UHGV virus genome: UHGV-1366603
Length of the DNA stretch: 64,000 nucleotides
From: a virus
Direction: 5' to 3' (one strand)
The position numbers and the translations under genes were made by a program. This document shows, piece by piece, positions 13,110-16,418 of the stretch; position 1 is the first letter of the stretch, and each line of letters starts with the position of its first letter. The notes beneath the pieces are model-generated. The model did not search any database and was not told the DNA's origin. It worked only from the letters and a program-made list of their open reading frames with translations.

Positions 13110-13418
13110 ATGGAAAACTATTCGGGTTGGGCAATTTCGCAGTGCATTGGCTATTCTTTACGTTCTTTAGTGCGTACACTTTATAACAAAAACTCAGGTG
13201 AAGCTATTACACCACAGTTACTGGGCAAATTGGAAGTCGAAGTTAACCACAAATTAAAGCAGTTACTCGACAACCACGTAAGAACAATGCGTTGGGAGTT
13301 TTTGTTGCGTGGTAAGAAGCCGTCAATTACTGTTGTGGCAGAAGGCAGTGAAATTGTTCTCCAATCCAACGCAGACCTGTTTGAAATTTTAACTGAACTC
13401 GAAAAGGACAAAATCTGA
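13110..13418 (+). CDS. hypothetical protein (102 aa)
   Basis: AAAGGA RBS. Confidence 0.45.
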
Positions 13419-14452
13419 TGAAACAGTATTTAGCGTTAATGCAAGACATTCTGGATAACGGCGTTGTCAAGAAAGACCGTACAGGCGTAGGGACACTTTC
13501 TGTATTTGGCCGTCAACTACGTTTTGACCTGAAAGAAGGTTTCCCATTAGTTACTACGAAAAAGGTTCACCTGAAAAGTATCATTCATGAACTGCTGTGG
13601 TTCTTAAACGGTGACACTAACGTGAAGTACCTGCAAGAGAATGGGGTAAGAATTTGGAACGAATGGAGTGATGAAGAGGGGAACTTAGGGCCAGTATATG
13701 GTAAACAATGGCGCGAATGGCGCGACTGTAAAGTTGTGGAATGTCACGATGTAGGACGTACACAACAACTAATGCAGCTCGGTTACAAGTATATTGGGAA
13801 CATAAAGGAAGACGGTACGACGTATTTGGTCTATGAAAAAGCACATGACCAGATCAGTAAAGTTATCCAACAACTTCGTGAAGACCCAGATTCTCGCCGC
13901 ATTATTGTTAGTGCCTGGAACGTAGCCGACCTGGACGACATGGCACTTAACCCATGCCACAACTATTTCCAATTCTACACTACAGAAATGACACTGCTTG
14001 AACGACTGGATTGGTACGAAGTAAACGAGCCGGAAAAATTTGCGAGCGCACCGCTTATTAATCACGAAGATATTGATGATGAAGAGCGGCTTCAAGAAAC
14101 TTTAGATCGTGAGGGCATTCCACGCCGTAAGCTTTCATGTTTTTACATGATGCGGAGCAACGATTACCTACTCGGCGCGCCATTTAACATCGCTTCCTAC
14201 GCTCTGTTAACCTATATGGTTGCACAGCAGTTGAACATGGTTCCAGACGAACTCGTTTACAGCGGCGTAGATGTTCATCTGTACTCTAACCATCTGGAGC
14301 AAGCAAAACTTCAGCTTACACGCGAACCATACCCGTTACCTAAACTGGTTATCAAACGTAAACCTGATTCTATCTTCGATTACAAATACGAAGACTTCGA
14401 ATTAGTCGGCTATCAAGCACATCCACATATTGCGGCCCCCGTCGCAGTATAA
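13418..14452 (+). CDS. thyA: thymidylate synthase (ThyA) carrying two insertions
   Basis: Near-collinear by-eye match to E. coli ThyA (MKQYL..., [39 protein letters not shown], catalytic [21 protein letters not shown]-terminal APVA); TGATG overlap with upstream gene. Confidence 0.9.
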
Positions 14453-14482: not shown

Positions 14483-14929
14483 ATGTCTAAAACTCATGTT
14501 AACTATAACATCGTAGTAGAAGAATTATCAAAAGGTTTAACCGATCTGGATTCTAAAGATAATCCGTTTACCGATCGCTATGGTCCCAATGCTTTGTCTG
14601 AATTTCGTACTATCCGCTACGGTACAGGTAGGCAGATGGGGCTTACAGACTTTGGTGTCGAGTTAGCTAAGAACCATAAAGGGAAAGTATTATTCGTTAA
14701 CCCAAAAGGGTTCTTAGAGGACGATGTGCTATTCCGTTTAGGTCTCGAAGACTTACCGGAGAATATCACACAAATCAGCGGTTACCAAATGGGTACAGAA
14801 AAAGAAAAATACAGCCTTGTCATTGTAGACGACGCTGGGGTTTTCTTTAGCATGTTCCGTTACATGAAGTTCTTCCGCTTACTTGCAAACTCAGTAACTA
14901 AAGACGTTGTAATCCATTTAATAGGTTAA
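14483..14929 (+). CDS. hypothetical protein (148 aa)
   Basis: AAAGG RBS. Confidence 0.5.
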   Translation: MSKTHVNYNIVVEELSKGLTDLDSKDNPFTDRYGPNALSEFRTIRYGTGRQMGLTDFGVELAKNHKGKVLFVNPKGFLEDDVLFRLGLEDLPENITQISGYQMGTEKEKYSLVIVDDAGVFFSMFRYMKFFRLLANSVTKDVVIHLIG

Positions 14930-14950
14930 TTAATGACGAGGGAATTCTTT

Positions 14951-15100
14951 ATGTCGAATGATGTCATTAAAGTTACTATAAAGTATATCAATCTGAATAA
15001 GAGAATCCGTTGCAAAGTAAATCGTAAAGCTATCGCTAGTCGCTGGCGTAAAGGACCACACAAGGGTCGTAAACGCTTTCTGGCTTTTTGGGATGTCTGA
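14951..15100 (+). CDS. small basic protein (49 aa), first of three coupled micro-ORFs
   Basis: ATG with GAGGG RBS; below the ORF-track cutoff; stop overlaps next start (TGATG); contains RWRKGPHKGRKRF. Confidence 0.35.
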   Translation: MSNDVIKVTIKYINLNKRIRCKVNRKAIASRWRKGPHKGRKRFLAFWDV

Positions 15101-15324
15101 TGAAAAAACCACGTTTTCACAGCCTGAGATACTTTACAGGTACTCTATATTTTATTGGCTACAACCGTGTACGTAAGGGTCCTGGTAAATCGAAGATGCG
15201 CATCGTGCGATATAAAGAGACGCCGCCAGGTCTAGCACCGATGGCGAAACTTCTGTCGCCGTTCGCTAACCTTAATATCAAAACTGTTAACCCCTTTGTA
15301 AGAAATCTGGAAACTAAAAAATGA
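15100..15324 (+). CDS. small basic protein (74 aa)
   Basis: ATG overlaps upstream stop; contains RVRKGPGKSKMRI, echoing the previous ORF. Confidence 0.35.
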   Translation: MKKPRFHSLRYFTGTLYFIGYNRVRKGPGKSKMRIVRYKETPPGLAPMAKLLSPFANLNIKTVNPFVRNLETKK

Positions 15325-15464
15325 CTGAAGAAGTTAAAGTAGAAGCCGTTAAAGAAACTGACGAATTTGCAATCCCTGGCTTAGACCCGGAAGCGACCGT
15401 AGAGAAAGGTGCTGACCCAACTACGGAAGACGATAACTGCTCAGGCGGGGCTTGCAAAATTTAA
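15321..15464 (+). CDS. small acidic protein with C-terminal CSGGAC (47 aa)
   Basis: ATGA overlap with upstream ORF; terminator directly downstream. Confidence 0.35.
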   Translation: MTEEVKVEAVKETDEFAIPGLDPEATVEKGADPTTEDDNCSGGACKI

Positions 15465-15472
15465 CAGTTCAC

Positions 15473-15512
15473 GGGGTGCTTATGTAGCACCCCTAATCCT
15501 TATTCTTTTTTT
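15473..15512 (+). terminator. intrinsic terminator
   Basis: GGGGTGCT-TATGT-AGCACCCC followed by a T-rich tract. Confidence 0.6.
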
Positions 15513-15534: not shown

Positions 15535-16365
15535 ATGGGCGAACGTTTTAACATCAACGCTATTTACAACATCGTAGTTAATCCTGGTCAGCACCTGGAA
15601 GAAGTTAACGCGCAACTGCGTGCTCTGAATGAGAAGGCAATACAGTTCGACGCCATTTACACAATCGGTGTAAACCCTGGTACCAATCGTATTCGCGTGG
15701 AAGGTAAACGACACACCGGCACTCAAGAACTGGACATCGAAACGATTGAAGCACCGATTAAACTTACTGATGCTGTTTATAACGGTACAGTAATGCACAC
15801 CGTATCGGTTCCGGTCTATTCTATTGCGAACTGTGCAGAACATGTTAAAGGTTGGTCTAAAGAACGCGGCATCCTCGATAACGGTAAACTGGAAACTCAA
15901 ATCACGAAATTCTTTGAAGAGTTTGGTGAAATTGCAACGGGTATCAGTAAAAACAAACCTGATTTGATCATGGACGGGATCGGCGATGCGTTAGTGGTTT
16001 TAGTGAACATCCTGGAGCTGGGTAAAGACAAACTGTCTGGAGAAATGACAACCGCTGAAATCATCGAGCACGGTTTACAGTTGCAGGTAGATGATGTCGC
16101 TGACGTTGAAGAACATTTTGATGACAACGGGTATCCACATCATTTGTATCTCCACGCTACCGAAATCTTCGCTACCGCATTTATTCGCTCCGATGCTGGG
16201 TTCGATCAGCTTAACTGGGCTTTGTACCGCCTTGCAAAACTGGCTCTCTACTATCGTCTTGACATTCGTCATTGTTTCTCTTTAGCCTGGCACGAAATCA
16301 AAGACCGTAAAGGTTACCTGAACGCCGACGGCATCTTTGTAAAAGAAGCAGACTTGGCGAAATAA
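15535..16365 (+). CDS. putative MazG-like nucleotide pyrophosphohydrolase domain protein (276 aa)
   Basis: FEEFGEI...DGIGDALVVLVNILEL resembles the MazG EExxE / ExxD metal-binding helices; TGGAG RBS; N-terminal ~120 aa unassigned. Confidence 0.4.
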   Translation: MGERFNINAIYNIVVNPGQHLEEVNAQLRALNEKAIQFDAIYTIGVNPGTNRIRVEGKRHTGTQELDIETIEAPIKLTDAVYNGTVMHTVSVPVYSIANCAEHVKGWSKERGILDNGKLETQITKFFEEFGEIATGISKNKPDLIMDGIGDALVVLVNILELGKDKLSGEMTTAEIIEHGLQLQVDDVADVEEHFDDNGYPHHLYLHATEIFATAFIRSDAGFDQLNWALYRLAKLALYYRLDIRHCFSLAWHEIKDRKGYLNADGIFVKEADLAK

Positions 16366-16371
16366 ATAAAA

Positions 16372-16418
16372 GTACCTACCTCCGAAAGGAGGTAGGTTAA
16401 CTTTCTTTTTTTCTTTTT
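16372..16418. terminator. bidirectional terminator, member of a repeated hairpin family
   Basis: GTACCTACCTCC-GAAA-GGAGGTAGGT followed by T-run; near-identical copies at 40076 and 57286. Confidence 0.65.

Follow-up and report, generated by a model that had tools for sequence, protein, structure and literature searches.

The window analyzed here, a stretch of 64,000 nucleotides of the virus genome UHGV-1366603, encodes on its plus strand three tiny open reading frames (ORF1 to ORF3), and the third of these (ORF3; 15321-15464, 47 residues, acidic and predicted to be disordered) very probably specifies a homologue or mimic of the redox-active C-terminal tail of NrdA, the alpha subunit of class Ia ribonucleotide reductase (RNR). 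The tails of class I alpha subunits are disordered, and a cysteine pair within them re-reduces the disulfide of the active site and is in turn kept reduced by thioredoxin or glutaredoxin (PMC9669993, PMC11903788). Judged by its sequence, ORF3 would be a free-standing copy of this electron-relay tail, encoded by viruses and, in a related form, by bacteria; we found no published example of a free-standing NrdA tail, nor any literature on gp234 of Salmonella phage SPN3US, which is the ORF3 orthologue there. We put the probability that ORF3 acts on the RNR relay of the host, as a tail mimic or shuttle working in trans, at roughly 0.5, and we have low confidence in the direction of its effect, be it a boost or a competitive block.

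The similarity lies at the extreme C-terminus. NrdA of Escherichia coli ends in IQDDGCESGACKI followed by the stop codon (tail DDGCESGACKI), and ORF3 ends in TEDDNCSGGACKI followed by the stop codon (tail DDNCSGGACKI, encoded with its stop at 15429-15464); the last 11 residues of ORF3 share 8/11 identities with NrdA residues 751-761. The two cysteines, Cys40 and Cys45 of ORF3, form a CX4C pair with the spacing of Cys754 and Cys759 in NrdA, and in ORF3 the stop follows directly after the terminal K-I. The first-pass annotation of this locus, made from the DNA sequence alone, had pointed out the C-terminal CSGGAC and overlooked its identity as part of this tail copy. The likeness may extend to the segment which precedes the cysteine pair within the NrdA tail (E. 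coli residues ~737-761), ORF3 having a predicted isoelectric point (pI) of 4.1 and 13 D/E residues; an AlphaFold2 (AF2) model gives coil for the ORF3 part, within a model of a natural ORF2-ORF3 fusion whose overall confidence is very low (predicted local distance difference test, pLDDT, 39). There are also differences: the NrdA tail is joined to a catalytic barrel domain, whereas ORF3 is a stand-alone gene, and ORF3 carries an extra IPGLDP motif (15372-15389) which NrdA lacks. Having no catalytic domain, ORF3 shows the sequence and the position of the tail and yet is not an RNR subunit.

Several searches converge on the same assignment. When E. coli NrdA was compared by six-frame tblastn with the window, and with the complete genomes of the phages CR5, SPN3US and pEa_SNUABM_30, the best match in each was the ORF3-family tail (its last 11-15 codons). 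A profile built from ten diverse family members was searched against 177,635 distinct sequences in the PDB and returned 14 matches (E=0.04), all of them C-termini of class Ia NrdA or the free peptide of the R1 tail (1QFN_B), and all aligned end to end, the profile finishing on the final residue of each chain. Of all stop-to-stop segments 30 or more residues long (1,089 in the window, 3,957 in CR5 and 4,385 in SPN3US), the ORF3 tail was the sole outlier in comparison with the NrdA terminus, with 8/11 identities against 3-4 for the runner-up. The ORF3-NrdA tail alignment scored 58, the maximum in 2,000 shuffles being 43. Each of these statistics is modest by itself because the motif is short, and the same shortness made a search with ORF3 alone uninformative (phmmer against the PDB gave only a spurious ankyrin match) where family profiles resolved it; the agreement of the tests, together with the strictly terminal position and the invariance of the motif, makes a chance resemblance very unlikely.

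That invariance holds across the family. Common to the ORF3 orthologues are an invariant (I/L)PGLDP, a G-x-D and a terminal C-x-(G/S)-G-A-C-K-(I/L)-stop, and the signature C-x-x-G-A-C-K-(I/L)-stop closes 111 of 120 family members, the exceptions being frameshifted or scrambled gene calls. Some members are closer to NrdA than ORF3 itself is: gp116 of phage Phobos ends in GCESGACKL, and the final 9 residues of a metagenomic homologue (P0051 in our protein set) are identical to those of E. coli NrdA (9/9). The family is already catalogued as PHROG 38753, 14561 and 24014 (E 1e-14, 1.1e-14 and 3.4e-13 for ORF3), with function unknown and with no link to RNR. No Pfam or NCBIfam model matched ORF1, ORF2, ORF3 or the bacterial homologues, and the PADLOC defence and counter-defence hidden Markov models gave no meaningful match to the three ORFs or to the gene upstream of them (orf148).

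Two other assignments for ORF3 were considered and rejected. Its acidic N-terminal half does not behave as a mimic of the docking peptide at the C-terminus of NrdB, as alignment scores were not above those of shuffled sequences (P 0.03-0.8) and a tblastn search with NrdB had no match in ORF3. Nor is ORF3 a redoxin of the thioredoxin fold (thioredoxin, glutaredoxin or NrdH): its motif is CX4C and not CxxC, its 47 residues compare with the ~75-110 of that fold, and it matches no Pfam or NCBIfam model.

Homologues of ORF3 were found by tblastn in 66 phage records, all of them jumbo phages of 224-267 kb infecting Salmonella, Erwinia, Cronobacter, Escherichia or Proteus, and in all of them the product is annotated as a hypothetical protein. 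In no fewer than four phage genera, among them the unrelated Alexandravirus, start codon, frame and invariant motif are intact. The Alexandravirus pEa_SNUABM_30 (NC_061446.1), which carries the gene at L055:23055-23198 (loci compared with the window are numbered L), has a quite different gene repertoire, with a sigma factor, a UvsX-like recombinase, a topoisomerase II and an NAD-dependent ligase; the presence of the family in so architecturally distinct a phage implies horizontal transfer between unrelated jumbo phages of Enterobacterales. In the records of Salmonella phages SPFM5-15, several matches to the ORF3 region are fragments at another genome position (~40-43 kb), and the proteins P0040, P0065, P0082 and P0090 of these phages look like scrambled mosaics of segments of gp233 and gp234; the fragmentation is probably an artefact of assembly or annotation.

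In the phages examined, the ORF3-family gene always sits in a cluster of nucleotide-metabolism genes, either beside thyA and mazG or just after a dCMP deaminase gene. The genomes of CR5, SPN3US and pEa_SNUABM_30 carry genes of nucleotide metabolism, for thymidylate synthase, thymidylate kinase, dihydrofolate reductase, dCMP deaminase, MazG, HD or Nudix proteins. In these three complete genomes no RNR is annotated and tblastn detected neither the body of NrdA nor NrdB; neither thioredoxin nor glutaredoxin is annotated in them, and the window is likewise devoid of the NrdA body and NrdB by tblastn. Other jumbo phages do have RNR: phiKZ carries RNR genes (PMC12571901), and the beta subunit is reported to be conserved in over half of jumbo phages (PMC13282480). 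Since three genomes with an ORF3 gene have no RNR, ORF3 does not appear to be the split-off end of a phage enzyme; it would copy the tail of the host's.

The family profile also identified acidic homologues of 42-52 residues encoded on the chromosomes of Neisseria, Eikenella, Conchiformibius, Pasteurella, Moraxella and a metagenome-assembled genome of Thiotrichales (examples are P0057, P0076, P0085, P0095, P0096, P0116, P0119 and P0121; loci L032-L048). These bacterial mini-proteins end in VEGGxD...(D/E)D(N/G)CxGGACKI-stop. In alignments they lack the IPGLDP motif that is invariant in phage-type members, and the two subfamilies are homologous over the last 24 residues (hhalign 98.3%, E 1.5e-14). 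A profile of the bacterial subfamily retrieved only NrdA C-termini from the PDB, along with one spurious acidic peptide. NrdA of N. gonorrhoeae, the protein of PDB entry 7MDI (PMC11226230), ends in QDDGCAGGACKI, and the Neisseria mini-proteins P0057 and P0076 end in EDDNCAGGACKI, sharing with it the residue at the variable position (CAGGACKI). The neighbourhoods of the bacterial genes vary: DUF3079 and HxlR; old-yellow-enzyme, nitroreductase, pirin and LysR; Rrf2; Usp; the interior of the isc operon in Eikenella; and a site between MnmG and a YfbR-like (HD) nucleotidase. No conserved partner gene was found beside them in the six contexts examined. The bacterial mini-proteins look like an uncharacterised small-protein family in their own right, without a curated family.

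The three ORFs are genuine features of the locus. As the first-pass annotation had described, ORFs of 49, 74 and 47 residues are chained by TGATG and ATGA overlaps, and their products are basic, basic and acidic (predicted pI 11.7, 11.2 and 4.1). ORF1 (14951-15100, plus strand) starts with an ATG at 14951, 8 nt downstream of a Shine-Dalgarno-like GAGGG; an alternative ATG at 14933 would give 55 residues, and the placement of GAGGG together with public gene calls favors the 49-residue form. The TGATG (15098-15102) joins the ORF1 stop to the start of ORF2 (15100-15324) with one base in common. At the ORF2/ORF3 junction (15316-15324) a run of six A's (15316-15321) abuts the ATGA overlap (15321-15324), and the frame of ORF3 is -1 with respect to that of ORF2. 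In 13 related contigs, public gene callers predict all three ORFs as genes.

Frame conservation in related phages had been proposed as a check of the three ORFs, and the frames are indeed open in all of the 5-7 distinct alleles recovered from close relatives, with ratios of nonsynonymous to synonymous changes (pN/pS, summed pairwise across these alleles) below 1 throughout. ORF3 is under purifying selection, its pN/pS of 0.18 (seven distinct alleles) being equal to that of the neighbouring mazG (0.18); orf148 is strongly conserved (0.08). The ratios for ORF2 (0.33-0.39) and ORF1 (0.55 for its allele a and 0.40 for allele b) come from few substitutions. These comparisons confirm, as far as sequence can, that the three tiny genes are more than a chance observation.

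The transcription unit is closed by an intrinsic (Rho-independent) terminator at 15473-15512 on the plus strand, as first proposed, with a hairpin, a T-run and conservation in relatives. The hairpin, GGGGTGCT-TATGT-AGCACCCC (15473-15493), has an 8-bp stem (15473-15480/15486-15493), a loop at 15481-15485 and a predicted energy of -16.3 kcal/mol, and is followed by a T-tract (15500-15512) that includes a run of seven T's (15506-15512). A strict terminator scan missed it because in the lineage of the window the T-run begins 7 nt past the stem. Equivalent hairpins with T-tracts are found in Caitlin, SPN3US, SPAsTU and contig L026; their stem sequences differ and remain complementary, so the structure has been kept by compensatory change. 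As an explanation for the ORF1/ORF2 region itself, structured RNA was considered and is unsupported: there is no Rfam match, and the folding (z = -0.79) is no better than that of shuffled sequence.

ORF1 and ORF2 have a history distinct from that of ORF3. The stretch R(W/V)RKGP(H/G)K that had been seen in both (SRWRKGPHKGR and NRVRKGPGKSK) marks a single paralogous family, which comprises ORF1 allele a (core RWRKGPHK, 15041-15064), ORF2 (core RVRKGPGK, 15166-15189), a divergent 57-residue allele b and a third, 56-residue copy in L023; R..KGP is invariant in 8/8 aligned paralogues (core R-x-(R/K)-K-G-P). The codons of the motif differ synonymously (CGT AAA GGA CCA in ORF1, CGT AAG GGT CCT in ORF2), and its retention despite these differences argues that both ORFs are coding. 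ORF1 is called as a gene in L008, L012 and L013, and allele b replaces allele a in L005-7, L009-11 and L022. The slot is plastic, with one to three tandem copies, allele replacement and, in some contigs, loss of orf148. Database relatives are few: among 5.8 billion proteins only two close clusters turned up for ORF1, and an exhaustive phmmer search of 1.84 billion representatives with ORF2 returned only two relatives, an ORF2-ORF3 fusion and a truncated form, both from the same phage lineage. Homologues of the two ORFs are missing from CR5, SPN3US, Caitlin and the other fetched loci, and there are no further RKGP ORFs elsewhere in the window, in CR5, or in those parts of other relatives that were fetched. 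Because orf148 lies directly upstream of the ORF3 orthologue in relatives, ORF1 and ORF2 are, by these sequence comparisons, recent, lineage-specific and fast-evolving basic paralogues inserted between orf148 and ORF3 in the lineage of the window. The notion that they are remnants of the genes of 255-272 and ~150 residues present there in SPN3US and Caitlin was rejected, as they show no similarity to these and orf148 is the true orthologue of the ~150-residue gene.

ORF2 is fused in frame to ORF3 in eight separate clusters at 90% identity, through four different junctions (GTK-MSEE, ETK-MTEE, EAK-MSEE and ETKK-MTEE). The length of the A-run differs between unfused variants and those fused in frame; the L020 fusion has 2 fewer A's and an A-to-T change that removes the TGA. 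The ATGA coupling and these natural fusions suggest that the tail mimic can have ORF2 as an optional accessory module at its N-terminus, which might serve for docking or charge neutralisation, ORF1 being a paralogue of ORF2. We speculate that a -1 slip at the A6 run of the window, which abuts the stop, would yield the same fusion architecture.

How might a free tail act? In the mechanism we favor, at the roughly even odds given above, ORF3 would work in trans on host NrdAB through the relay that runs from thioredoxin or glutaredoxin to the tail and on to the active site: host thioredoxin or glutaredoxin would reduce the Cys40/Cys45 pair, which could then enter the NrdA active site, providing an extra, diffusible electron shuttle which sustains or raises the turnover of host RNR when the phage's need for deoxynucleoside triphosphates (dNTPs) far exceeds what the host chromosome can supply. 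A shuttle is preferred because both cysteines and their native spacing are invariant, which preserves a complete dithiol/disulfide cycle and not a one-cysteine trap, because the phages depend on host RNR, and because the gene travels with genes for dNTP supply.

There are partial precedents for this proposal. The redox C-terminus of an RNR is a separate gene product, NrdJb, in the split class II enzymes (NrdJa plus NrdJb, for example in Pseudomonas aeruginosa; PMC5704485). NrdJb differs from ORF3 in being a folded zinc-finger domain of class II, encoded together with a catalytic partner that lacks a tail of its own, whereas the presumed partner of ORF3, host NrdA, keeps its tail (as the E. coli sequence does) and is encoded by a different genome. 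An isolated tail can be a tractable and specific ligand: the free 25-residue R1 tail peptide of E. coli is a solved PDB entity (1QFN), and the ORF3-family profile aligns with it end to end, although that peptide is synthetic, carries C754S and is not a natural gene product. It was reportedly studied with glutaredoxin-1, by Berardi and Bushweller in 1999 (cited in PMC5704485). Small disordered proteins that act on the large subunit are known as well, in Sml1, Spd1, Dif1 and Hug1; these resemble ORF3 by functional analogy only, being eukaryotic, non-viral inhibitors that do not copy the tail and from which no sequence relationship is expected.

Such inhibitors bring up the opposite reading of the same protein, as a competitive decoy which blocks the entrance to the NrdA active site or soaks up reduced thioredoxin and glutaredoxin, shutting down host replication or redirecting reducing power, and which could thus be a functional analogue of yeast Sml1. 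The evidence for tail identity applies equally here, a free copy of a tethered element is the classic design of a competitive inhibitor, and small disordered RNR regulators acting through the R1 C-terminus are known: Sml1 is said, from work of Zhang and colleagues in 2007 (cited in PMC4078304 and PMC5704485), to interfere with regeneration mediated by this C-terminus. The stress-type neighbourhoods of the bacterial genes (HxlR, old yellow enzyme, Rrf2, Usp) would also fit a brake on DNA synthesis. We nonetheless regard a decoy as unlikely, since phages with genomes of 224-260 kb, a large dNTP demand and no RNR of their own would seem to defeat themselves by blocking the sole enzyme, a dead-end trap needs one cysteine where both are invariant at native spacing, and the gene is placed among genes for dNTP supply. 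The bacterial neighbourhoods lend themselves to a broader reading too, namely that ORF3, like its bacterial relatives, is a small dithiol protein of general function, possibly a redox buffer or sensor, a factor in metal or Fe-S handling, or a partner of another phage enzyme such as orf148, and resembles NrdA only through a motif recognized by thioredoxin and glutaredoxin. The bacterial copies never adjoin nrdAB and lie instead inside an isc operon or beside genes for old yellow enzyme, nitroreductase, pirin, Rrf2, HxlR or Usp, and the phage copy is linked to orf148 (phrog_2586) in several genera. Against this, the similarity exceeds the cysteine pair and takes in its flanks and the K-I terminus (DD-x-C-x-x-GACKI), one Neisseria case tracks the variable position of Neisseria NrdA (CAGGACKI), and PDB-wide profile searches return NrdA with the single exception of the spurious acidic peptide; we think a general dithiol role quite improbable.

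Both of these readings take ORF3 to be functional. Were it a functionless 3' remnant of an ancestral phage nrdA, with ORF1 and ORF2 as spurious or decaying ORFs in a variable slot, a tail-only fragment would be the expected product of a 5' deletion, and with RNR beta reported as conserved in over half of jumbo phages (PMC13282480) such a loss is plausible; the ORF1/ORF2 slot is indeed hypervariable (truncation in L022, allele replacement), its ORFs are orphans and their pN/pS is relaxed. This is very improbable given that start, frame and motif of ORF3 are kept across at least four phage genera and in bacteria at a pN/pS of 0.18, that the paralogues retain the RKGP motif although its codons differ synonymously, and that ORF2 remains an open frame in the eight fusion clusters even where its amino-acid sequence has diverged substantially. 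The first-pass annotation had likened the locus to a precursor-peptide gene, and small size, an acidic leader-like N-terminus and a cysteine-containing C-terminus would suit the precursor of a ribosomally synthesized and post-translationally modified peptide (RiPP) with CSGGAC as its modified core; there are also radical-SAM proteins elsewhere in the CR5 and SPN3US genomes. That suggestion now seems hardly credible: no maturase, protease or exporter adjoins the gene in the phage contexts or in the six bacterial ones, the radical-SAM genes lie at a distance of 30-60 kb, the RiPP-precursor models of NCBIfam and Pfam give no match, and the likeness to the NrdA tail explains the motif. Its other suggestion, a small regulatory or inhibitor module, pointed in the right direction for ORF3. 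The three ORFs do not form one ancient module, ORF1 and ORF2 being lineage-specific.

Several points weigh against a trans-acting shuttle. The common motif spans only ~11-15 residues and the individual E-values are marginal (0.04-0.26), so the case depends on the agreement of several independent tests, on the terminal position and on invariance; convergence on the short tail motif could conceivably account for the likeness. A free peptide would compete with a tethered native tail of high effective concentration, so that a net stimulation is not self-evident, and on chemical grounds inhibition is equally plausible. The absence of RNR is drawn from three related complete genomes, and of the window's own genome ~160 kb lie outside the 64 kb. 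The match to the cognate NrdA is imperfect, as other Neisseria copies have E or V at the variable position (CEGGACKI in the N. meningitidis type) and Erwinia phages carry three different tail variants. Bacterial homologues are not linked to nrdAB, and their varied neighbourhoods, often of redox or Fe-S character, would also fit a wider role in dithiol chemistry. A truncated ORF2 occurs in L022, a role for ORF1 and ORF2 is weakly supported (pN/pS 0.33-0.55, few substitutions), and the AF2 model of the natural fusion (pLDDT 39) was uninformative. Translation, binding and redox activity of the three ORFs are all predictions.

In this phage, a ~224-kb Salmonella jumbo phage with CR5 and SPN3US among its relatives, the locus forms the 3' end of a transcription unit for nucleotide metabolism. 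The gene order here is thyA (13418-14452), orf148 (14483-14929), ORF1, ORF2, ORF3, the terminator and a MazG-like nucleotide pyrophosphohydrolase gene (15535-16365), from orf148 onward on the plus strand; the last of these falls just under the Pfam gathering cutoff for MazG (E 7e-4, 20.3 bits against 22), and its orthologues in relatives are annotated mazG. The DNA of the window is only distantly similar to that of SPN3US (Seoulvirus), Caitlin (Machinavirus) and CR5 (Derbicusvirus), and megablast against the phage collection gave distant matches only and no near relative. Close relatives (ORF3 91-98% identical) are metagenomic contigs of ~224 kb, and one of 223,835 bp carries the NCBI label Salmonella enterica, an indication of the host. 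The MazG-like gene and a convergent 187-residue DUF7941 gene are separated by a perfect 10-bp GC-rich hairpin, ACCTACCTCC GAAA GGAGGTAGGT (16374-16397), with T-rich tracts on both strands, which is probably a bidirectional terminator.

The upstream neighbor orf148 is the orthologue of Caitlin gp245 and SPN3US gp233 (ACQ60_gp033; blastp 42-50% identity, E 1e-32 to 5e-42) and belongs to phrog_2586 (E 4e-27), of unknown function. In SPN3US, SPAsTU, Caitlin and pEa_SNUABM_29 its orthologue stands immediately upstream of that of ORF3, followed by the hairpin and mazG; it is linked with members of the ORF3 family in several genera and may be a partner of the ORF3 protein. It shows a degenerate P-loop-like pattern, YG(A/T)GRQxG(V/L)T ... 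hhhh(D/I)(D/E/S)AG(F/V/Y)(F/Y)F (window 14483-14929; L001:2478-2930; L003:1936-2415; L017:2859-3314). A profile of its family found no match in the PDB, nor did Pfam or NCBIfam yield any, and the AF2 model of orf148 alone was unusable (pLDDT 33). In Derbicusvirus the order of the ORF3 and orf148 homologues is inverted with respect to Seoulvirus and the window, the ORF3 homologues have long N-terminal extensions (78-97 residues), and between the ORF3 and orf148 homologues sits an "Arn.3-like" gene that overlaps the end of the former (L017:2324-2809, CR5_114; L028:2587-3033, Phobos gp117).

The thyA-mazG interval is a hotspot of gene gain and loss. A further sign of this is an ORF of ~98 residues with a C-terminal helix-turn-helix-like segment (KLAEIHGVTPSRISQII), inserted after thyA at L023:1606-1902 and L026:1409-1708, which the window lacks. 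The thymidylate synthase gene itself is variable. The window's enzyme has 344 residues and is considerably longer than E. coli ThyA, which has ~264; close relatives vary (344 vs 346) with an internal segment replaced, 25 residues in the window corresponding to TKLVYLWDERSKDVLRERGYRYVGT in L021. In L026 (IMGVR_UViG_3300011862_000001, L026:1-1400) the gene is interrupted, an ORF of 233 residues joining an unrelated N-terminal segment to the middle of ThyA and a separate ORF of 95 residues encoding the ThyA C-terminus, which by analogy with the td intron of T4 suggests the insertion of an intron or homing endonuclease.

RNR limits the supply of DNA precursors, and many large phages encode one of their own; the phages considered here do not, yet they must make several host-genome equivalents of DNA. 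A copy of the electron-relay tail alone would, if our interpretation holds, be a very economical way of manipulating host RNR, by which a virus tunes the rate-limiting step in its host's supply of DNA precursors without encoding the enzyme. It would also assign a testable function to three PHROG families of unknown function and to SPN3US gp234, and would offer a natural tool for the poorly understood re-reduction half-cycle of class Ia RNR. More broadly, though we would sooner doubt than accept this extension, there may be a new class of RNR accessory proteins, "tails in trans," in jumbo phages that lack RNR and independently in Neisseriaceae, Pasteurellaceae and Moraxellaceae, with A6 indels or -1 frameshifting switching between the free and the RKGP-fused form; proteins of ~45 residues, disordered, would then pass electrons on from thioredoxin or glutaredoxin to the active site of NrdA, or gate their passage. 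The ORF1 and ORF2 genes illustrate how orphan micro-genes arise, duplicate and fuse beside a conserved gene, and the copies in Neisseria, Eikenella, Pasteurella and Moraxella point to a possible accessory factor of RNR or of redox metabolism, so far unrecognized, in pathogens where RNR serves as a drug target.

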